DNA from: a virus
Lineage: Duplodnaviria > Heunggongvirae > Uroviricota > Caudoviricetes
Length of the DNA: 64,000 bases
IMG/VR virus record: IMGVR_UViG_3300045988_007243
Reading direction: 5' to 3' (one strand)
Notes under the pieces: generated by a model
What the model saw: only the letters and a program-made list of their open reading frames with translations
Told to the model about the DNA's origin: nothing
Databases searched by the model: none
Translations under genes and position numbers: made by a program
Shown here: positions 4,115 to 21,930 of the stretch, piece after piece
Numbering within the stretch: position 1 is the first letter of the stretch
Layout: each line of letters starts with the position of its first letter

Positions 4115-5467
4115 TTATTCGTAAGCCACTGTACCTTTCAAGTCAACATCCAAGATAGCCCCTGCTAAGATACCTGCGAAGGTAATATCTTTCAGGATAC
4201 GAGCTTTCTTGTCTGCCAAAGCAACTTGAGAGGCTTTAGGAACATTAACTGTGTAAGATGACAGGAAGTTTCTGTTGACTGCTCTTTGCAGAGAGGTTTC
4301 AATGACTTGACGAATACGAGTAATACCAGTATCATCATAAGTAATCTTACCACCCTTCTGGTTAATTAGCAAGTCTCTCAGAGCAGTTTTCAGGTCTGAT
4401 TCTAACCAGTCAACACCACGGACGATATCAATCCATTCCCCACCAGAAGTAATCCCTCTACGAACCACTGGAACACCACCATCAAGGTCAATAAAGTTAC
4501 AGTGACGTGCATCTAAAGCAGATTTCTGAATACTTGTTAGTGGTCTCTTATTAGTTGGTTGTAGAGAAGCAGCTACACCAGTGAGCTGTGCATTACCCCA
4601 AGCAATTGACCCTGCATCATATGGAGCACCATAAGCAATGTATGCCATTTCTGGATAGTCTTCTGCTGCTGTGTGATGCCACAAACAAACTGTACGAGTG
4701 TACATGCTCTTAGCAAGCTGTGCTGGAACATCATTTGCACTAGCCAATTCTGTGCCCTGTAGTGCTGTTACATCTGAGTTAGCTGTAAAGAAGATTTTCT
4801 TACGAGCTTGAATCTCAGAAGCCATTGCTAAGACAAACTGTTGAGTTCTATCTTCTGCTGCAATGAAATACCAGTCAGTAGAATAAGCTTCAATGGCTGC
4901 CAGAGCGGTTGCTGCGGTATCGGCAGTTGTACTTGCAATATATACAGTCTGTGCTGTGGTTGTTGCTTTCACAAAGTCATTATCACCAGATTTGGTAATA
5001 ATCATTGTAGCAGAACCAGCACTACCAGTTACGTTCACAGAAACCTTATCTTTGATTGTTGGGTCAGCTTCAATCTGTGTTTTAAACTGTTGCAAAACTA
5101 CCTCAGCAGTATCTGAGCTTTGTGCTGTATACTGGAGTGGTTGAGAGATTCCACCACCAACAGCTACAGTAATTGAGTAGTCTGTGCTTTCAGTAACGGC
5201 ATCAGGAATTGATACAGTGTACTGCATAGCACGTCTACCAATATAAAGCTGAGTTACTTTAGGAGTCTGACTCCAAAGTTGTTTAGCAGCCTTATATGCA
5301 GCAGACCTCTCATCGAAATCTTCAGCAACTTCAGTTAAGGAAGTGTAGCCACGTACTCTTTCTTCAAAGTTATCTGTTGAAGCTAAGAATAGTGGCAAAC
5401 CAAAACCTTCTCTTGTAGTTCCTGCGGTGTTCAATGTAATATCTACATTAACAATTGGATTCCACAT
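4115..5467 (-). CDS. tail sheath protein
   Basis: 450 aa, position upstream of tube/chaperones/tape measure; composition typical of sheath-like proteins. Confidence 0.5.
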   Translation of the reverse strand: MWNPIVNVDITLNTAGTTREGFGLPLFLASTDNFEERVRGYTSLTEVAEDFDERSAAYKAAKQLWSQTPKVTQLYIGRRAMQYTVSIPDAVTESTDYSITVAVGGGISQPLQYTAQSSDTAEVVLQQFKTQIEADPTIKDKVSVNVTGSAGSATMIITKSGDNDFVKATTTAQTVYIASTTADTAATALAAIEAYSTDWYFIAAEDRTQQFVLAMASEIQARKKIFFTANSDVTALQGTELASANDVPAQLAKSMYTRTVCLWHHTAAEDYPEMAYIAYGAPYDAGSIAWGNAQLTGVAASLQPTNKRPLTSIQKSALDARHCNFIDLDGGVPVVRRGITSGGEWIDIVRGVDWLESDLKTALRDLLINQKGGKITYDDTGITRIRQVIETSLQRAVNRNFLSSYTVNVPKASQVALADKKARILKDITFAGILAGAILDVDLKGTVAYE

Positions 5468-14638: not shown

Positions 14639-14714
14639 TTGGAGAATCCGAAGGGACTCGAACCCTTATAAACCTGTTTTGCAGACAGGCACATAGCCAT
14701 TTCTGTCACGGATT
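14639..14714 (-). tRNA. tRNA-Cys (GCA)
   Basis: Hand-folded cloverleaf: CCA encoded, 7-bp acceptor, T-loop ACTCGAA(rc), anticodon loop gives GCA. Confidence 0.7.
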
Positions 14715-14718
14715 CAAA

Positions 14719-14811
14719 TTGGAGGAAGATACCAGACTTGAACTGGTACACCGATTTCTCAGCTACTGGCAGTTTAGCAAACTGCTCCCTTACCTTTTAG
14801 GGTTAATCTTC
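14719..14811 (-). tRNA. tRNA-Ser (GCU), long variable arm
   Basis: Perfect acceptor pairing (ggaagat/atcttcc), canonical T-arm, 21-nt variable arm, anticodon loop gives GCU. Confidence 0.7.
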
Positions 14812-14813
14812 CA

Positions 14814-15548
14814 TTATTTCTGTAATGCGTTCTTCATTTCTGGTGTTGCAATAGCATCAATTACACCAGTTTTACAAGCATCATCAAACCAGTCTGGTAA
14901 GATACCTGCTAAGAACCCATTGATATTCGTTTTAAGGTACTCTGCAATAAGGGCAGCTTCTTCTTCAATCATCTGCACAACTTCATCTGCATAAGCTGTA
15001 ATCTTCGAGATACCTTCATTAATCTTACTAACAGCTTGGTTAGCTAAATCAGAAATAGTATCAAGACCTTTGTCAATAGCGTCTTGTAAATCACTTAATA
15101 CATCATTAACACCGTCTAGTGCACTGTTAATCGTATCAATAGCTTTTTGACCATACTCTGTAGCAACACCCATAATACCACTAAATGGTGTACAGCCAAC
15201 TTGTTCACCTGCTGCACCCATAACATTAGAATAACCTTTTGCTACCTGCATACGTGATGAAAACTCATCAATGGACTTTTGACCGTAATCTGTCAGTGTT
15301 TTGGTAGTTGATGTAGTGCTTGTCAGACTCGTGGTAAAGCTGTTAAGCAGAACTGTTGTAAGTCCAGCAGCAACAAGCTTATCTTTTACTGTAGGGTCTG
15401 ATACAGAACTAATAGAGCTTACAAGTGATGTAGAGGCAGCTACGGTTCCACCGAGAACTGCTGCACCAGTAATAAGGGGGTTAGAAAACCCTTTACCAGT
15501 TTTTAAGAGATTAAAAATCTCCTTACCTTGTTCTGTCATCTCTTTCAT
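14814..15548 (-). CDS. hypothetical protein embedded in tRNA array
   Basis: ORF-track start at 15611 overlaps a tRNA; start moved to internal ATG (MKEMTEQ...) with AAAGG RBS. Confidence 0.4.
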   Translation of the reverse strand: MKEMTEQGKEIFNLLKTGKGFSNPLITGAAVLGGTVAASTSLVSSISSVSDPTVKDKLVAAGLTTVLLNSFTTSLTSTTSTTKTLTDYGQKSIDEFSSRMQVAKGYSNVMGAAGEQVGCTPFSGIMGVATEYGQKAIDTINSALDGVNDVLSDLQDAIDKGLDTISDLANQAVSKINEGISKITAYADEVVQMIEEEAALIAEYLKTNINGFLAGILPDWFDDACKTGVIDAIATPEMKNALQK

Positions 15549-15566
15549 TAAGCACCTTTGAAATTG

Positions 15567-15641
15567 GTAGTCCAGTGGGATTTGAACCCTCTTCTCATGT
15601 TTTTCAGACACGCGCTTTAACCATATAAGCTACTTGGACTA
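15567..15641 (-). tRNA. tRNA-Phe (GAA), tentative
   Basis: Acceptor tagtcca/tggacta pairs perfectly, T-loop ATTTGAA(rc), anticodon loop gives GAA; T-stem and D-arm imperfect. Confidence 0.45.
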
Positions 15642-15646
15642 TAAAT

Positions 15647-15722
15647 TGGGGTGACCTACGGGATTTGAACCCGTATAGACCATGTTCACAGCATGGGTCA
15701 TTACCATTTATGATAAGGCCAC
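15647..15722 (-). tRNA. tRNA-His (GUG)
   Basis: Perfect T-stem and anticodon stem, loop gives GUG, discriminator C73 as expected for His. Confidence 0.65.
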
Positions 15723-15753
15723 ATTTAAGGACTCTCGTAAGAATCCTTAGAAG

Positions 15754-15829
15754 TGGCAGCGGCATAAGGATTTGAACCTTAATAAGACAGCTTCAGAGAC
15801 TGCTGCATTGCCAGTTATGCTATACCGCT
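15754..15829 (-). tRNA. tRNA-Gln (CUG)
   Basis: CCA encoded, canonical T-arm, anticodon stem with two G-U pairs, loop gives CUG. Confidence 0.55.
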
Positions 15830-15834
15830 AAATT

Positions 15835-15913
15835 TGGTACTCCATATCGGATTCGAACCGATACATAACACAGATTTTAAGTCTGGCCTCTCTGCCAATT
15901 GGAGTAATGGAGC
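15835..15913 (-). tRNA. tRNA with Leu anticodon UAA, short variable arm
   Basis: CCA encoded, A73, canonical T-arm, anticodon loop CUUAAAA; only 6-7 nt between T and anticodon arms. Confidence 0.5.
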
Positions 15914-15915
15914 AT

Positions 15916-15991
15916 TGGCGGGGGATGTTGGAATTGAACCAACTTCTTCGATTTCAAAGACCGAGGTTTTAACCTTGTAAACTAATCCCCT
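15916..15991 (-). tRNA. tRNA-Gln (UUG)
   Basis: CCA encoded, perfect T-stem and D-stem, anticodon loop gives UUG; position 1-72 unpaired. Confidence 0.55.
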
Positions 15992-15999
15992 TTAAATCT

Positions 16000-16557
16000 T
16001 TACTTTCTCAGTGGATGAATAAAGAATGCCAACATAACTCTTTCCCTTGAGAATGCTCTTTCTTCTGGGACAACACTTTTTAGTTTCCATCCAATATAAA
16101 TTCTCCAGTAAAATTGTTTACCAAAGATTTTAATTGATGGGATAAAAGCGAATAACCCCCAAGCATTACTGTTCCACATTAGGAGATAACCAGTCTGATT
16201 ATCTTCAGGGTCAGAACTTACGTTGATATTACCTTTCCACTTAGTAACATCTTTTACATCTCTTCCTAATACATGGTAAGAGAAGTTATAAGCTTTGTTT
16301 CTCCAGAGCCATCCGACTCTCTGCATATAGACACCAAGCTTACCAATCTTTCTAATCTTAGCCCATCGTTTGATATGACCTGCATCACCATCAATTGGGT
16401 TGTCATAAGTCTCCATCCATCTGAACCCGAAAGGCAAGTGTCCTTTCTTCTCACTGTAGAATGGAACTACAAAAGGTGCTAAGATAACTGCTAAGATTGC
16501 TGCAAATGGCTCTAACAAAGCTAAGAAAATCCATGAAGCATACTTTAAGTATCTCAT
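16000..16557 (-). CDS. membrane protein (hypothetical)
   Basis: 185 aa, hydrophobic N-terminal segment; lies between tRNA sub-clusters. Confidence 0.4.
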   Translation of the reverse strand: MRYLKYASWIFLALLEPFAAILAVILAPFVVPFYSEKKGHLPFGFRWMETYDNPIDGDAGHIKRWAKIRKIGKLGVYMQRVGWLWRNKAYNFSYHVLGRDVKDVTKWKGNINVSSDPEDNQTGYLLMWNSNAWGLFAFIPSIKIFGKQFYWRIYIGWKLKSVVPEERAFSRERVMLAFFIHPLRK

Positions 16558-16796
16558 TGTCTAATCCTCGTAAGGAGGTAAATGTTATTATTCGTTTCTA
16601 AACCTTCTGGTAAAACTGTCTCAAAAATAACACTCTTCAGATGTCTACCACCAAAACAATCACGTATAAATCTTTCTACTCTAGCGGGGTCACATAAGTA
16701 TCCCACTTTTAAGAAAATGTGGTGTTCAACACCAATGACCCTGACAAACTCAATACTCTCACAGTTTTCATGTTCAACTACTGTTAATGTTTGCAT
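16554..16796 (-). CDS. hypothetical protein
   Basis: 80 aa ORF between tRNA sub-clusters. Confidence 0.35.
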   Translation of the reverse strand: MQTLTVVEHENCESIEFVRVIGVEHHIFLKVGYLCDPARVERFIRDCFGGRHLKSVIFETVLPEGLETNNNIYLLTRIRQ

Positions 16797-16814
16797 AGTA
16801 TCACCTTTTTATCT

Positions 16815-16890
16815 GGCGCAGGATAAGGGATTCGAACCCCTATTAACAGCTTCGTAGACTGTTGCTCTTTCCATTTGAACTAATCCTGCA
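16815..16890 (-). tRNA. tRNA-Arg (ACG)
   Basis: CCA encoded, perfect acceptor pairing gcaggat/atcctgc, anticodon loop gives ACG. Confidence 0.65.
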
Positions 16891-16895
16891 AAATT

Positions 16896-16973
16896 GGTGT
16901 TCCAAGACGGATTCGAACCGTCACTAATACAAGGTTTGAGCTTGCATCCTCTGCCAATTGGGATACTGGAACA
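16896..16973 (-). tRNA. tRNA with Leu anticodon CAA, short variable arm
   Basis: CCA encoded, A73, perfect T-arm, anticodon loop CUCAAAC; scaffold paralogous to 15835-15913 and 17476-17552. Confidence 0.5.
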
Positions 16974-16974
16974 T

Positions 16975-17049
16975 GGTACTCACTAAAGGACTTGAACCTT
17001 TTTCTTCATCTTGTAAGGGTGATGTTTTACCATATAAACTAAGCGAGTA
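16975..17049 (-). tRNA. tRNA-Val (UAC)
   Basis: CCA encoded, perfect T-stem and D-stem, anticodon loop gives UAC (one stem mismatch). Confidence 0.55.
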
Positions 17050-17054
17050 TGAAA

Positions 17055-17141
17055 GAGGTCTGAAGTTGTGCCGCTAACTCAACTCCGTGGAATTTGTTAC
17101 GGTCTTCAGTTGACTCAAAGCGGTCTTTCACTTGACCTCTG
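17055..17141 (-). other. tRNA-sized structured element without canonical T-loop
   Basis: 87-nt interval in a tRNA-sized gap with perfectly paired 7-nt termini (agaggtc/gacctct) and internal ctgaag/cttcag repeat, but no GTTCRANY T-loop. Confidence 0.3.
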
Positions 17142-17145
17142 AATT

Positions 17146-17222
17146 GGTGCTGCTCACAGGACTTGAACCCGCATCTCCATCCTTACAAGGGATGTGTAAT
17201 AGCCAATTATACGAAAGCAGCA
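17146..17222 (-). tRNA. tRNA-Thr (UGU)
   Basis: CCA encoded, perfect anticodon stem catcc/ggatg, loop gives UGU. Confidence 0.6.
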
Positions 17223-17229
17223 TTAATTT

Positions 17230-17304
17230 GGAGCATCCAGAGGGAATCGAACCCTCAACCTCAGTTTGGAAGACTGTAATTTTCCCGTTTAAACTATGGA
17301 TGCA
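17230..17304 (-). tRNA. tRNA-Gly (UCC)
   Basis: Perfect acceptor gcatcca/tggatgc, perfect T-stem, U73, anticodon loop gives UCC. Confidence 0.65.
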
Positions 17305-17310
17305 CTAATT

Positions 17311-17386
17311 GGTGGAGAAGCAGGGAATTGAACCCTGTACTTAAGTTTGCAAAACTTATGTTTTAACCATGTAAACTACATCCCCA
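17311..17386 (-). tRNA. tRNA-Ala (UGC)
   Basis: Perfect T-, anticodon- and D-stems; anticodon UGC; G3-U70 wobble and A73 (Ala identity elements) present. Confidence 0.7.
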
Positions 17387-17392
17387 ATGTTT

Positions 17393-17468
17393 GGTACAGG
17401 TGGAGGGAATTGAACCCATCATCTTACTGATTAAGAGTCAGCCGCATAACCATTTTGCTACACCTGCA
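17393..17468 (-). tRNA. tRNA-Lys (CUU)
   Basis: CCA encoded, anticodon hairpin actga/tcagc with loop giving CUU; scaffold paralogous to 19090-19165. Confidence 0.55.
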
Positions 17469-17475
17469 TTAATTT

Positions 17476-17552
17476 GGTACACCTAGAGAGATTCGAACTC
17501 ACACTGAGCAGATTCTAAGTCTGCTGCCTCTACCAGTTGGGCTATAGGTGCA
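17476..17552 (-). tRNA. tRNA with Leu anticodon UAG, short variable arm
   Basis: CCA encoded, A73, perfect anticodon stem gcaga/tctgc, loop gives UAG; 5-nt variable region. Confidence 0.5.
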
Positions 17553-18005
17553 TTAAATCAAATGTCTTGAGAATTGACTGTGGCAATTTGGACACAAGAA
17601 CCGAAGATTCTCTTTTCTATCATCTAACCAGTTCTCGTTAATGTGGTCAACATCAAGAGTTAGAGGGTTATCCAACCAATACGGTAACTGACCACATTTA
17701 GAGCATTTGTATTCGACACCAGAGGCTATTAAAGCTCTTCTTAGTTGTGAAGACCTAGCTCTTTCACCAGATTCACGTAGAATTAGTATTTCTTCAGGCT
17801 TTCTTTTTGGTACAGTTTTAATCTTACCAGCCTTTTGTCCGAGGAAATGAGAAGTGTCTATTTCAAACTTCTCTATAACACGCTTTAGATGTGACTGAGA
17901 ACCACCTGCTGGTTTTCTCCCAAGCTTAATAAGTACTTCTCTGAATGATACTGAATCCTTTACTAAAGGCTCAAGAATATCTTTAGTCAAACTGCTACGT
18001 GCCAT
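17553..18005 (-). CDS. HNH homing endonuclease
   Basis: 150 aa; C-terminal HNH motif (LDVDHINENWLDDRKENLRFLCPNCH); free-standing inside tRNA array. Confidence 0.75.
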   Translation of the reverse strand: MARSSLTKDILEPLVKDSVSFREVLIKLGRKPAGGSQSHLKRVIEKFEIDTSHFLGQKAGKIKTVPKRKPEEILILRESGERARSSQLRRALIASGVEYKCSKCGQLPYWLDNPLTLDVDHINENWLDDRKENLRFLCPNCHSQFSRHLI

Positions 18006-18097
18006 GTGTCAATCTCCCATTAAACCTTTTTAGAGAACTTCTAAGAACCTAAGCAACAAGGTTCCACAACAAGCTGTAATAACCTTAGAAGCCCTCT

Positions 18098-18122
18098 AAA
18101 AAGACCTAAAAAGGTCTTTGCA
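18098..18122 (-). terminator. possible intrinsic terminator/hairpin
   Basis: AGACC-N5-GGTCT hairpin followed by a short U-tract on the minus strand. Confidence 0.3.
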
Positions 18123-18274
18123 TAGTCTTGTTTAATCTGGTGACTAGAACCTTTGGAGAGCTTGATATTATCTCTTCTCCGTGACACCTACTAGGTGCTT
18201 TATCAGTGTGTACGACAACACGAGGGATAAACCGAAAATGCGAGCAAGCATGGACGGTGTAAAATCTTATTAGG

Positions 18275-18362
18275 CGGTAAGTAAAGGAGTCGAACCCTCA
18301 CCGTATCTCTACAGTGGCAACAGTTTTCAAGACTGTTTGGCTGCCATTAGCCGCTACCTACC
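18275..18362 (-). tRNA. tRNA-Ser (UGA), long variable arm
   Basis: Perfect anticodon stem acagt/actgt, loop gives UGA, 20-nt variable arm; CCA not encoded. Confidence 0.6.
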
Positions 18363-18375
18363 CCTAATAAGACTT

Positions 18376-18458
18376 TGGCATGGGACGGAGGAGTTGAACC
18401 CCTTTGAAACGGTTTTGGAGGCCGTTGCTCATGCCTTAGAGTCTTAACATCGTCCCAT
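18376..18458 (-). tRNA. tRNA, identity unresolved (possibly Trp CCA)
   Basis: CCA encoded, perfect acceptor atgggac/gtcccat, canonical T-loop; internal fold ambiguous, about 7 nt longer than class I. Confidence 0.4.
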
Positions 18459-18601
18459 ACTATAATTCGAAGCTCACCGTATTATCTCAACACTGTAAAG
18501 CCCCTTCTCAGATTATTTACATGTTCTGGAAAACATGAGATACAGACCACCTCCCTACAGGAAGACCCGCTTAGGTCGTCTAAGTAATCTGCTAACTAAA
18601 T

Positions 18602-18683
18602 TGGTCGAGGCGGCAGGACTCGAACCCGCATACTCCACTTACTCGGTTAACGGCGGTTTAGAAGACCGCTGAGATACGCCCCG
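18602..18683 (-). tRNA. atypical tRNA-like gene (anticodon hairpin reads UCU, Arg)
   Basis: CCA encoded, acceptor and T-arm canonical, perfect 5-bp hairpin with loop UCU, but no room for a normal D-arm. Confidence 0.35.
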
Positions 18684-18931
18684 TAATTATCTTTAAAGAC
18701 TCTCTTAGAAAGCCCTTAAAGATGCCCACCTTATTAATCATACCGTGGGCGAGTACGCCAAATTCTTTGATGAGGGATTGGAAGACCTCACTGGTGTTTA
18801 GCCTATCAAGCTACTGCCAGAAAAACATTGTCGTTTGCATTTATTTTAAATTTGCAAAATAGACGCTACGCAACGAAAACTAAGGTTAGTATAAAGTAGT
18901 CACATCTCAATGTCAACAACTTTATTGAAAT

Positions 18932-19007
18932 TGGTACTGGTAGGTGGAATCGAACCACCGATGTTCCCTTATCAGGGGAGTGTTATAACCTTCTTAACTA
19001 TACCAGC
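18932..19007 (-). tRNA. tRNA-Ile (GAU)
   Basis: Perfect T-stem ggtgg/ccacc, perfect D-stem, anticodon loop gives GAU. Confidence 0.6.
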
Positions 19008-19008
19008 T

Positions 19009-19085
19009 TGGAGGTTCAGATGGGAATCGAACCCACATTCATAGGGCTTATGAGACCCTTGCATTACCTTATCTGCGACTGAACC
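19009..19085 (-). tRNA. tRNA-Met (CAU) (or lysidine Ile)
   Basis: Perfect acceptor ggttcag/ctgaacc, anticodon stem with GGG/CCC, loop gives CAU. Confidence 0.6.
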
Positions 19086-19089
19086 ATAT

Positions 19090-19165
19090 TGGTAGAAGTG
19101 GAGGGATTCGAACCCATCGCCTGTCAGATTAAAAGTCTGCCGCATCACCATTCTGCTACACTTCC
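19090..19165 (-). tRNA. tRNA-Lys (UUU)
   Basis: CCA encoded, anticodon loop TTAAAAG(rc) gives UUU. Confidence 0.55.
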
Positions 19166-19170
19166 ATTAA

Positions 19171-19312
19171 ATTATCTTTGTAGATAAGCTACCCAGACTT
19201 GCTTAAGGTCTGTAGCGATGTGCCTTTTTGGGTTTAAATCTAGAATTTACCCTTTCACCCTTTGTGGTCGCATACTCACAGGTAAGCTTAATAACTTATC
19301 TACAAAGATAAT
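19171..19312. repeat. 18-bp perfect inverted repeat pair flanking a 106-bp spacer
   Basis: attatctttgtagataag at 19171-19188 is the exact reverse complement of cttatctacaaagataat at 19295-19312. Confidence 0.6.
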
Positions 19313-19365
19313 TACCAGACCGTTGTTTATCATCTTAAGTGCTACCATTACACCAACTCGACATC

Positions 19366-19390
19366 TGCCGAGTGAAGGAATCGAACCTTC
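19366..19390 (-). pseudogene. tRNA 3' fragment (acceptor + T-arm only)
   Basis: gccgagt + gaagg-AATCGAA-ccttc matches a tRNA 3' half but no matching 5' half follows. Confidence 0.35.
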
Positions 19391-19424
19391 GCCTTTTCTT
19401 TACCGAGAAATAGATTGTTTAAGT

Positions 19425-19452
19425 TTTGCTGTAAACGGTCTTCTGTAAATTT
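19425..19452. repeat. 28-bp repeat tttgctgtaaacggtcttctgtaaattt, copy 1
   Basis: Identical 28-mer at 19993-20020; diverged copies at 19512-19536 and 20161-20187. Confidence 0.6.
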
Positions 19453-19619
19453 GTTGAGCCAGACCAAGTTTTAAATTTTTCAAAATTAAATTGGCTTGAA
19501 ATTTTAAGTAACTTGCTGAATTTGGTCTTCTGCTCCTTTAAAGAATACTCGTAAGAACCCTTTAAGGGAGGGGCTAAATAGCCCTCTCAAAACATCATTT
19601 TGAAATACTTATTATAAGT

Positions 19620-19696
19620 TGGCGGCTACGATGAGACTTGAACTCACATCATCTCCCGTGACAGGGGAGTATTTTCTCCAGTTAAACTACATAGCC
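19620..19696 (-). tRNA. tRNA-Asp (GUC)
   Basis: CCA encoded, perfect anticodon stem ctccc/gggag, loop gives GUC. Confidence 0.65.
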
Positions 19697-19701
19697 TTTA
19701 T

Positions 19702-19789
19702 TGGTGTGCCGTGTAGGAGTCGAACCTACCGAGTCTCAATGACAAGGGATTTACAGTCCCCACCGCTACCATCTACGGGATAACGACAC
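19702..19789 (-). tRNA. tRNA-Tyr (GUA), long variable arm
   Basis: Perfect T-stem, anticodon loop gives GUA, about 15-nt variable arm. Confidence 0.6.
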
Positions 19790-19801
19790 ATTTTAATTTA
19801 T

Positions 19802-19857
19802 ATTCAGGATAAGGACTTGCACCTTACAAATCGGTGAGCAATCGCTTCTCTCCTAAA
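19802..19857 (-). pseudogene. truncated tRNA-like element (56 nt)
   Basis: Acceptor-like ends pair, perfect T-stem taagg/cctta around a mutated T-loop ACTTGCA; too short for a tRNA. Confidence 0.3.
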
Positions 19858-19859
19858 TT

Positions 19860-19936
19860 TGGCGGTTAGTCAGGGATTCGAACCCTGTGCCATTCGCTTA
19901 ACAGGCGACCGCACATACCTTATGTGCTTCCTAACC
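19860..19936 (-). tRNA. tRNA-Asn (GUU)
   Basis: Perfect T-stem caggg/ccctg, D-stem gcac/gtgc, anticodon loop gives GUU. Confidence 0.55.
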
Positions 19937-19992
19937 ATGTTTAGTATTACCAGACCGTATCTTTCAATTTTTTCCGCTAAAAATTTCATTAA

Positions 19993-20020
19993 ATTTGCTG
20001 TAAACGGTCTTCTGTAAATT
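19993..20020. repeat. 28-bp repeat tttgctgtaaacggtcttctgtaaattt, copy 2
   Basis: Identical to 19425-19452; abuts the 3' end of the tRNA at 20020-20096. Confidence 0.6.
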
Positions 20021-20096
20021 TGGAGGCGGGTGAAGGAGTCGAACCTGCCGATACCATGCTAATGAGACATGTGAGACGCCCTTTCTCTATACCCGC
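20020..20096 (-). tRNA. tRNA-Met/Ile2 (CAU), second CAU species
   Basis: CCA encoded, anticodon stem catgc/acatg, loop gives CAU; position 1-72 unpaired. Confidence 0.5.
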
Positions 20097-20188
20097 AATT
20101 CTTAATGACCAGACCAAATCTCTTCTTTGTCCGATTTACCTTCAGATGAATAAGATTAAGTTTGCTGTAATTGGTCTTCTGTCAAAAC

Positions 20189-20266
20189 TGGCGTTCCAGA
20201 AGGGATTTGAACCCTCAAATATCCACTTTGAAAGAGTGGTGACTATACCATTTTGTCTACTGGAAC
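20189..20266 (-). tRNA. tRNA-Glu (UUC)
   Basis: Perfect acceptor gttccag/ctggaac, perfect anticodon stem ccact/agtgg, loop gives UUC. Confidence 0.65.
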
Positions 20267-20273
20267 ATTAATT

Positions 20274-20350
20274 TGGTCTCTGTTGGAGGACTTGAACCTC
20301 CGGCCTTACCGCCCCAAACGGAACGCTCTACCAAGCTGAGCTAAACAGAG
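20274..20350 (-). tRNA. tRNA-Pro (UGG)
   Basis: Perfect acceptor ctctgtt/aacagag, perfect T- and D-stems, anticodon loop gives UGG. Confidence 0.6.
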
Positions 20351-20467
20351 ATAAACTTTTCAAACTCTATGTAACCACTTTAACATTATTTTTTAGTGAT
20401 TGTCAAGAACTTTTTAAAATATTTTTCAGTATCTTAGAAAAGCTCTCATTTCGTTTCTATGTAGAAC

Positions 20468-20496
20468 ATATTAAAGGGTATTAAACACATTGTCAA
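20468..20496 (-). promoter_or_regulatory. sigma70-like promoter driving the tRNA array
   Basis: Minus strand reads TTGACA-17 bp-TAATAT about 120 bp upstream of the first tRNA. Confidence 0.55.
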
Positions 20497-20514
20497 TACC
20501 CTTTTTAAAACTTT

Positions 20515-21930
20515 TTACCAGATATAACGGTCAATCATTACTGCTTTGAGCATTACGCTGATTGGGTCAAACTTCTCACCACCAAGCAGAGCTTTTAAAG
20601 TGGCTGGAGAGAAACCAGATACCATTGCTACACCGTTATCCTTAACAGACACTTCGCAAGTACCATTACGGTTTGCTAAGTACCAGAATACCAGTTGTGG
20701 CATTTCGTATCCAGCTTTTTTGTACTTACTCTGAATTGCTTCAAAGTTTGTACGACCGTTAGCTCCATCAACCTGATTGAACTCCATATCGGAGAAGATG
20801 ATAAGCTTACTTGGCATATCTTTCTGAGTCAAGTTGTTTCTTTTACCTGTCTCAAGAATACGGTCAAAAGCAGCTTGTAAGTTAGTTGAGCCATATTCAA
20901 CGTGTCGCATCACCTGACGATGACGGTTTCGTAAATCACCACTCAGTTCGATGAAGTGAGGGTTTGTTGAATAAACCATCAACTCATTCTTAAAGCAACC
21001 TGTATTGCGTTCTGCTACATACAAGGCAAGTGATACACCAATATCCAGAGCAGTAATGGAGCCAAAATTCACCCAATACATTGAACTTGACACATCAGAC
21101 ATACATAGAATGTTTTCACCCTCTGCCATCCAGTTTGGTAGTGCTTTCCACTGCTCATTAGCAACATCTGCATTACCATACTTAACAGATTTAATCACAT
21201 CGTATGGGTAAACAGCACCAGCATTAATCTTAGTCTCACCCTTTGATAAGGACTCGATGTAAGCTTTGTAGCGTTCTCCATCTTTGCGGTTAAACAGTTT
21301 TTGGTAACGTGCAGCAGCAAGTGAAGGAATCTTACTGTAGTCAATCTTACCAAACTCATTAGCAGAGATTTTTTGCTCGACTGTATCAGATAGTGCAGAC
21401 AACAGTGTGCGGTACTCTTTCTCACTCAAGTTGGCAAACTTGCAGAAACGTTTTACAAACTGCTTATGACGTGGTTTGACTCGTGGTAACCACTTAGCTG
21501 CCAAACCTGCTGTTGCAGGGTCTAGTAATGCTGCTTCTAAATGTTTGAAGGCATCTGTCTCGAAACGAGTACCTACGAAGATTTTGAAGTCATCAAAACG
21601 ACCAAGTTCTGCAATCTTATCCATAATGCGAAGAACCTGTGTAGGCTCTAAAACTTTATCTTCAATCGCTTGAAGCAAAACAGTTCTGAAGGCTTTACGC
21701 TCACCCATACCTTCTCGTACATCTCGCATATGCAGTAAAATACGAACTGCAACATCAACATCCTCACGCAAAGCTTTGTAGAACAGGTCTGGTAAGATTT
21801 CTACATTGCTACGGCTTGAACCAGCAGCTTTGTAAAAGTCTACAAGAGCAGACATTGATGAAGTATGGTTTACAGCACCATTTTCAGTTCGACCTGCATG
21901 AAGGTGCGCATGTTTAAATAATTCGCTCAT
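20515..21930 (-). CDS. vWA (MIDAS) domain protein, possibly Ro/TROVE-like
   Basis: 471 aa; DxSxS MIDAS motif (MSDVSSSM) within a vWA-like fold; about 280 aa N-terminal domain of unknown type. Confidence 0.5.
   Translation of the reverse strand: MSELFKHAHLHAGRTENGAVNHTSSMSALVDFYKAAGSSRSNVEILPDLFYKALREDVDVAVRILLHMRDVREGMGERKAFRTVLLQAIEDKVLEPTQVLRIMDKIAELGRFDDFKIFVGTRFETDAFKHLEAALLDPATAGLAAKWLPRVKPRHKQFVKRFCKFANLSEKEYRTLLSALSDTVEQKISANEFGKIDYSKIPSLAAARYQKLFNRKDGERYKAYIESLSKGETKINAGAVYPYDVIKSVKYGNADVANEQWKALPNWMAEGENILCMSDVSSSMYWVNFGSITALDIGVSLALYVAERNTGCFKNELMVYSTNPHFIELSGDLRNRHRQVMRHVEYGSTNLQAAFDRILETGKRNNLTQKDMPSKLIIFSDMEFNQVDGANGRTNFEAIQSKYKKAGYEMPQLVFWYLANRNGTCEVSVKDNGVAMVSGFSPATLKALLGGEKFDPISVMLKAVMIDRYIW

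Follow-up and report, generated by a model that had tools for sequence, protein, structure and literature searches.

In a 64,000-nt stretch of phage DNA (IMG/VR record IMGVR_UViG_3300045988_007243; the whole stretch is called the window), which belongs to a FelixO1-type myovirus (Ounavirinae, Felixounavirus), a 28-nt sequence, TTTGCTGTAAACGGTCTTCTGTAAATTT, occurs twice without a mismatch in the spacers of a tRNA gene cluster. We found that this 28-mer is the conserved 5' half of small structured RNA modules, of which the window holds four (A to D), and not a DNA signal. From the structure of the modules, its covariation and its genomic linkage to a Ro60-like gene, all directly observed, we consider it likely that the 28-mer marks a group of four genes for Y-RNA-like RNAs, of which three resemble YrlB and one resembles YrlA, and for which a divergent Ro60-fold protein is proposed as the partner. 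The RNA family to which these structured modules belong is widespread in phages, and we found it neither in Rfam nor in the searchable literature.

The 25 tRNA genes called by ARAGORN in positions 14640-20350 are without exception on the minus strand, and the 28-mer is therefore to be read on that strand. Its exact copies, which had no match in any shuffle, are:

19425-19452, minus strand: 28-mer copy 1, the 5' half of module D, made of the 5' strand of the outer helix, the A-G-A bulge, the 5' strand of the inner helix and the UUUACAGCAA motif
19994-20021, minus strand: 28-mer copy 2, the 5' half of module B, overlapping tRNA-Met by the final tRNA base, 20021

The exact duplication had been noticed in a preliminary description of the sequence, in which the second copy was placed one base off (19993-20020). 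The two diverged copies also reported there are real: a repeat search recovered one at 20161-20189 (76% identity), and a profile of the 5' half matched the two exact copies and, apart from these, only positions 20161-20186 and 19513-19534 of the 64 kb. The core CAGAAGACC has four occurrences (0.5 expected), none of them on the plus strand or outside this region, where they strictly alternate with four minus-strand copies of GGTCTGG (GGUCUGG in RNA). As described, the copy at 19994-20021 abuts a complete tRNA, meeting the 3' end of tRNA-Met (20021-20097, minus strand); the tRNA fragment said to flank the other copy does exist, not as a remnant but as a permuted tRNA-like domain. The tandem TTTACAG-N7-TTTACAG noted on the minus strand is present in copies B and D only and, since it is not conserved in A, in C or in other genera, we regard it as incidental. 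The initial view of a non-random element, tied to the tRNA cluster and meaningful on the minus strand, was right in all three respects, and copies in coding regions unlinked to tRNAs, which would have spoken against it, were not found in the window with the 5'-half profile or with the covariance model described below. The Felix O1 genome paper refers to twelve direct repeats of at least 24 bp without giving details or an interpretation of the 28-mer repeat.

All modules share one layout, composed of a 4-bp outer helix, a 5' A-N-A bulge, a 7-bp inner helix starting with R-G and a 1-nt 3' bulge; inside the inner helix, a conserved single-stranded U-N-CAGCAA is followed by a variable insert. In every module the 28-mer-type sequence is base-paired to a segment 25-100 nt downstream, and the minimum free energy (MFE) folds of the four window modules have a common closure (AGA bulge, 7-8-bp AGACCNN/NNGGUCU inner helix, G bulge and UUWCAGCAA). 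A covariance model was trained solely on 20 short modules of Ounavirinae, and modules A to D are its sole matches in the entire 64-kb window:

20106-20184, minus strand: module A, short, YrlB-like, 79 nt, UGAC-AGA-AGACCAA...UUGGUCU-G-GUCA (70.4 bits, E 2e-13)
19947-20017, minus strand: module B, short, 71 nt, UUAC-AGA-AGACCGU...ACGGUCU-G-GUAA (72.8 bits, E 5e-14)
19456-19535, minus strand: module C, short, 80 nt, GAGC-AGA-AGACCAA...UUGGUCU-G-GCUC (68.1 bits, E 6e-13)
19312-19448, minus strand: module D, long, YrlA-like, 137 nt, with the closing stem of module B (match to the 5' part, 24 bits, E 0.0065)

Modules A (4 nt after tRNA-Glu, 8 nt before tRNA-Met) and B (3 nt after tRNA-Met, 10 nt before tRNA-Asn) occupy nearly the whole of their tRNA spacers, and module D starts 7 nt after module C. 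The insert of modules A, B and C is a small hairpin only. Modules B and D, unlike A and C, agree at every base of the 28-nt 5' half and at 13 nt of the 3' strand; at three related loci (L002, L006 and L082), B is diverged from D and shows compensatory changes (UUGC/GCAA), which suggests that a duplication or gene conversion involving B and D took place recently in the lineage of the window.

The four modules are kept in every Felixounavirus and Mooglevirus locus examined. A relative with 63% identity has three modules with the same core and other flanking helices, and relatives with about 55% protein identity, including Yersinia phage vB_YenM_P778, have three to five modules of the same architecture with different cores (for example UUGAC-AUA-AGAAUC...GAUUCU-G-GUCAG and AUGC-ACA-GGACUGU...ACAGUCC-A-GCA); no relatives of the Yersinia phage protein were found among viral contigs. 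A specific structure descriptor gave 94 matches on the gene strand versus five on the other strand. In 32 non-redundant Ounavirinae modules, 82.7% of the cells are paired versus 64.5% after shuffling (82.7% being reached in 0 of 500 shuffles), and pairing falls to 35-47% when the partner is slid by one column. Three column pairs that the search pattern does not enforce vary in a compensatory manner: columns 11-38 (AU 26, GC 6, unpaired 0), columns 4-43 (UA 21, GC 6, UG 2, AU 1, unpaired 2) and columns 17-32, with five pair types. The 5' and 3' ends of the modules are joined by an 11-bp bulged closing helix with covariation, in whose bulge region, (G/U)NC-ANA-RG, only A8, A10 and G12 are invariant. 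Two other search designs were discarded: an early finder anchored on AGAAG worked within Felixounavirus only, and a relaxed descriptor (any 3-5-nt bulge, any 5+4 bp) matched shuffled and reverse sequence as often as the real one.

Directly upstream of the tRNA/module region, in the direction of transcription, lies the gene of the presumed protein partner:

20515-21930, minus strand: gene for a Ro60-like protein of 471 aa (Pfam DUF2828 and DUF7788), ortholog of Bas63 gp130

The modules are found 0.3-1.2 kb downstream of this gene and on the same strand, within the distance of about 4 kb from a Ro60 ortholog that is looked for in YrlA and YrlB, the Ro60 status being given here by the predicted fold. 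In an AlphaFold2 model of the protein (30 homologs; predicted local distance difference test 89, predicted template modelling score 0.89), a HEAT-repeat ring is followed by a C-terminal vWA domain with a MIDAS (metal-ion-dependent adhesion site) motif, D279-x-S281-x-S283, T349 and D381, which is complete and invariant across the 30 homologs. The top 12 Foldseek matches in the PDB are full-length Ro60/Rsr structures (template modelling score 0.43-0.66), among them Xenopus and human Ro60, D. radiodurans Rsr and Thermus phage phiRo60 (9kop/9l5y), the last being the best structural match; thereafter only isolated vWA domains follow. The product of 20515-21930 is thus predicted to have a Ro60 fold. 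Bas63 gp130 was independently described as structurally Ro60-like and as counteracting the Ppl defence system in the PhageMaP preprint (PMC11482910), where Y RNAs were guessed to hide among the downstream annotated tRNA genes and none was identified. The candidates presented here differ from that expectation, since they sit in the spacers between tRNAs and not in annotated tRNA genes. In Bas63 (L001), the module C/D region (1990-2264) is overlaid on the opposite strand by two small 'hypothetical protein' coding sequences, bas63_0137 and bas63_0138, as is also the case in other GenBank relatives, and the module spacers are otherwise unannotated; both are probably spurious calls over non-coding RNA genes.

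Outside Ounavirinae, we searched 84 distant loci encoding a DUF2828 protein (815 kb, both strands) with the covariance model at E<=1. All 54 matches are on the gene strand, 46 of them at most 500 nt from the gene and none inside it, and 35 of the 84 loci have at least one match. Taken by itself, the 5'-strand motif has, in 77 distant loci (40-52% protein identity), a density of 0.77/kb in the 600 nt downstream on the gene strand, 0.23/kb upstream, 0.045/kb in other positions, 0.009/kb inside the gene and zero on the opposite strand downstream. In the distant set, whose alignment is fitted to the model, the inner helix is 99.6% paired, with all seven pairs changing on both sides and slid controls at 36-47%; the folds of distant modules show the same bulged closure with unrelated helix sequences. 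Modules may be arrayed: Aeromonas phage LAh_9 has about eight matches, Staphylococcus phage S-CoN_Ph7 has three that directly follow the stop codon, and Listeria phage LP-064 has two. At eight of the 14 module-bearing distant loci examined there is no tRNA within about 5 kb, and therefore the RNA follows the Ro60-like gene and not the tRNAs. A helix-length test is underpowered per match (2 of 64 at p<=0.05) and significant in aggregate (z = 4.4). A requirement for 10 of 11 pairs did not discriminate in AT-rich distant loci (36% of matches versus 28% of shuffled controls), and a Y/R closing test was uninformative, as the pair is forced by the pairing rule itself.

The neighbourhood of some distant loci deserves description. 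In Listeria phage LP-064 (L095), an RtcB-like tRNA-splicing ligase gene (4813-5458) is located 1.3 kb downstream of the DUF2828 gene, and the two module matches directly precede that gene, an arrangement that echoes the bacterial rsr-yrlBA-rtcBA operon. In L090 and L091 (1000-3560; 51-52% identity), genes for phosphoribosyl-pyrophosphate synthetase and NAPRTase precede the Ro60-like gene and module matches follow its stop codon, a context that suggests salvage or reconstitution of nicotinamide adenine dinucleotide.

Module D differs from the short modules in its insert, in which the MFE fold, with covariation in five lineages, delineates a tRNA-like domain with approximate sub-parts:

19338-19414, minus strand: permuted tRNA-like domain of module D
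19392-19414, minus strand: V hairpin (approximate)
19374-19390, minus strand: T arm (approximate), GAAGGUUCGAUUCCUUC
19356-19373, minus strand: closed acceptor-like hairpin (approximate)
19338-19354, minus strand: D arm (approximate), GGUGUAAUGGUAGCACU

The order V, T, closed acceptor-like hairpin, D is that of a permuted cloverleaf, and module D is not a standard one, having this permuted order and no anticodon arm. ARAGORN called no tRNA at 19312-19448, and the Rfam tRNA model (RF00005) matches the T arm only (14.9 bits). The long modules of the five lineages have in common the T arm, whose stem covaries, the D arm and an acceptor-like hairpin, the sequence of which is unrelated. At another locus (L059, 4727-4824), the conserved 5' motif AAUAAAAGGUUAGUUUCAGCAA is followed after 21 nt by a complete tRNA-Thr, according to ARAGORN, and the insert may there be a whole, non-permuted tRNA.

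In the interval from module D to tRNA-Lys, at 19166-19311 (minus strand), we observed a further, very stable stem-loop of about 146 nt (-48 kcal/mol, z = -7.2), with a closing helix of about 24 bp that covaries in relatives, a conserved GAGUAKGC stretch and a conserved CCUUAAGCAAG hairpin; it has no Rfam match. Since its homolog in L083 is closed by a module-type stem (UUUGC-AAA-GAAUCU-UUCAGCA), this RNA may be a derived fifth module.

Two promoter-like sites, recognised by consensus match only, are located between the Ro60-like gene and the modules:

20468-20496, minus strand: sigma-70-like promoter TTGACA-17-TAATAT, just 3' of the Ro60-like gene stop, the likely start of the tRNA and module transcript
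20377-20406, minus strand: second sigma-70-like promoter, TTGACA-18-TAAAGT with TG, upstream of tRNA-Pro

No minus-strand terminator was found between these sites and the modules. As promoter-like sites lie just after the gene stop and no terminator precedes the modules, these are probably made within the tRNA precursor and freed from it by the tRNA-trimming enzymes. For transcription, processing, protein binding and biological role we infer the following scheme. The RNAs and the tRNAs would be co-transcribed, starting at the promoters that follow the Ro60-like gene, and the RNAs would be released when the flanking tRNAs are cut out by RNase P and 3' processing; the Ro60-like protein would then bind them via the bulged helix and the adjacent motif, and the variable or tRNA-like part could tether the complex to another factor or serve as a tRNA mimic.

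The linkage to the gene could also arise if the modules were cis-acting elements of the Ro60-like transcript, in its leader or 3'-untranslated region, involved in autoregulation or mRNA stability, and not trans-acting RNAs. The distant matches, mostly within 500 nt up- or downstream of the gene on the same strand, agree with this, and a protein that binds its own mRNA leader would give the same linkage. In the window, however, two promoter-like sites and two tRNAs separate the gene from modules A to D, which reach 1.2 kb from the gene and are interleaved with tRNAs; moreover, modules occur upstream or downstream of the gene and also in tandem arrays of three to eight, and some contain a complete tRNA-like domain, which has no obvious purpose in cis and matches the trans-acting YrlA. 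We therefore regard a role in cis as unlikely. The position of the window modules in tRNA spacers, 3-10 nt from mature tRNA ends and with neither promoter nor terminator between modules and tRNAs, is what would be seen for processing or spacer elements of a polycistronic tRNA precursor, recognised by RNase E, RNase III or RNase P and functionless after cleavage; a tRNA-processing signal had been one of the roles put forward in the preliminary description. This is very improbable, given that most spacers of the same cluster measure 1-8 nt and carry no module-type element, that the same RNA stands beside the Ro60-like gene at the eight distant loci devoid of nearby tRNAs, and that the bulge and CAGCAA are kept in phages whose hosts, Gram-negative and Gram-positive, have different RNase sets.

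Barely credible, in our judgement, is an action of the element as DNA, whether as an internal promoter or a homing-endonuclease/recombination target, the two other roles originally proposed, or as a small mobile repeat. TTTACA does resemble a -35 hexamer, an HNH endonuclease open reading frame is present in the tRNA cluster, relatives have insertions in this region, some of them annotated as HNH homing endonuclease, and the 28 nt of copies B and D do not differ, as would follow from a recent duplication or gene conversion. But a sigma-70 scan (-35/-10 hexamers, 16-18 nt spacing) called no promoter at any of the four copies and put promoters instead at 20496-20468 and 20406-20377. The matches are on one strand only, the copies keep conserved orthologous positions across genera and are not scattered, and the compensatory changes between each copy and its partner 25-100 nt downstream, which a DNA-level target leaves unexplained, point to selection on RNA pairing.

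Several observations weigh against the assignment of the modules as Y-RNA-like partners of a Ro60-fold protein. The 471-aa protein has no TROVE match in Pfam (DUF2828 and DUF7788 only), and neither phmmer nor a 30-sequence profile found any sequence match in the PDB, Ro60 chains included; with no detectable sequence similarity to Ro60, the assignment rests on the predicted fold. The modules lack the GNCGAA(N)G motif of YrlA and YrlB, the G of CGAA being absent, and read C-A-N-A-R-G in a covarying bulged helix; no Rfam 15 family matches them at permissive thresholds, and the short modules are not unusually stable (z-scores -1.1 to -1.3). The distant loci were selected because they encode the DUF2828 protein, so that the linkage between RNA and gene was sampled via the protein; the E-values of the covariance model are approximate, and the distant alignment follows the model to which it was fitted. 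No match at E<=1 was obtained at 49 of the 84 distant loci, and none within 2 kb in a KVP40-like Vibrio phage, an Enterococcus phage and mycobacteriophage LeBron. Divergence could account for the unmatched loci, or the RNA-protein partnership may not be universal.

The region from 18800 to 20600 is 95-97.5% identical to Escherichia phages KEP1, VpaE1, Alf5 and JohannRWettstein (Bas63), and among relatives the module region varies by insertions, part of which carry an HNH homing endonuclease annotation. Within the tRNA cluster, the 150-aa open reading frame at 17553-18005 (minus strand) has a borderline HNH endonuclease match and zinc-ribbon motifs and is probably a free-standing homing endonuclease. 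An Rfam tRNA match above the gathering score (31.7 bits) at 18605-18683 (minus strand) was missed by ARAGORN, and a tRNA-Arg (AGA) is annotated in Bas63 at the matching place; a weaker tRNA-like Rfam match lies at 18382-18456 (minus strand).

Ro60 and Y RNAs form a conserved RNA-surveillance system whose bacterial and phage roles are poorly understood. The RNA partner of the Ppl-countering Ro60-like protein of a FelixO1-type phage had so far only been guessed among tRNA genes, and candidate RNAs with exact coordinates are now available, together with a defined, mutable candidate binding module (bulge, R-G pairs and CAGCAA motif). The covariance model can locate further members in other phages. 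RNA databases could gain a new family from this analysis, and spurious 'hypothetical protein' annotations over module RNAs would be corrected in many phage genomes. More tentatively, and giving it somewhat less than an even chance, we hypothesize that each of the DUF2828/DUF7788 proteins, which form a divergent branch of Ro60 present in hundreds of phages with Gram-negative and Gram-positive hosts, has a dedicated, hitherto unrecognised Y-like RNA family, often in tandem and sometimes with a tRNA mimic, that the ribonucleoprotein is a general counter-defence or RNA-surveillance device, and that the Ppl-countering by Bas63 gp130 depends on the RNAs.

YrlA and YrlB are bacterial Y RNAs to which the Ro60 ortholog Rsr binds. 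YrlA was characterised by a 5' GNCGAA(N)G motif, an end-pairing stem, a tRNA-like domain with V, T, AS and D, and a location beside a Ro60 ortholog on the same strand, and YrlB shares the motif and has no tRNA-like domain (Chen et al., 2014; PMC4201824). The search in that work was restricted to genomes in which a TROVE protein is annotated (Chen et al., 2014; PMC4201824), and the DUF2828 phages were therefore not covered; our searches of the literature, including those with DUF2828, TROVE and phage, and PhageMaP, found no description of the module RNA. Like YrlA and YrlB, the modules lie next to a Ro60-type protein gene and on its strand, with more than one RNA per locus, and their ends pair into a stem that bears, close to the 5' end, a conserved purine-rich motif; the V, T, AS, D order of YrlA is seen in module D and in the corresponding long modules of four other lineages, and modules A to C are shorter and without a tRNA-like domain, like YrlB. 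Unlike YrlA and YrlB, the modules have an invariant U-N-CAGCAA after the helix, a partner of the DUF2828/DUF7788 family and not a TROVE-annotated Ro60, and up to eight tandem copies, embedded in Ounavirinae in a tRNA operon. The modules have every architectural trait of YrlA and YrlB, and not their sequence motif. Further traits of this RNA type are binding by Rsr/Ro60 in vivo, tRNA modifications and cleavage by RNase P.

In Thermus phage phiLo, Yrl1 and Yrl2 were found through a CGAA motif in a large internal bulge (PMC12135203). They are, like the modules, phage-encoded Y-RNA-like RNAs adjoining a phage Ro60 homolog, but the phiLo protein (phiRo60) is recognisable as Ro60 by sequence, and no correspondence in sequence or motif was found between Yrl1/Yrl2 and the modules. 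The likeness to metazoan Y RNAs (RF00019) is one of form, both being small RNAs with a terminal stem and a bulged conserved helix that bears a GGUC/GAC element; the modules have no RF00019 match in Rfam and, unlike module D, metazoan Y RNAs are without a tRNA-like domain. The bulged helix of metazoan Y RNAs is recognised by Ro60, and its arrangement is the reverse of that in the modules, where the 3' strand carries GGUC and the bulge is on the side of the termini.
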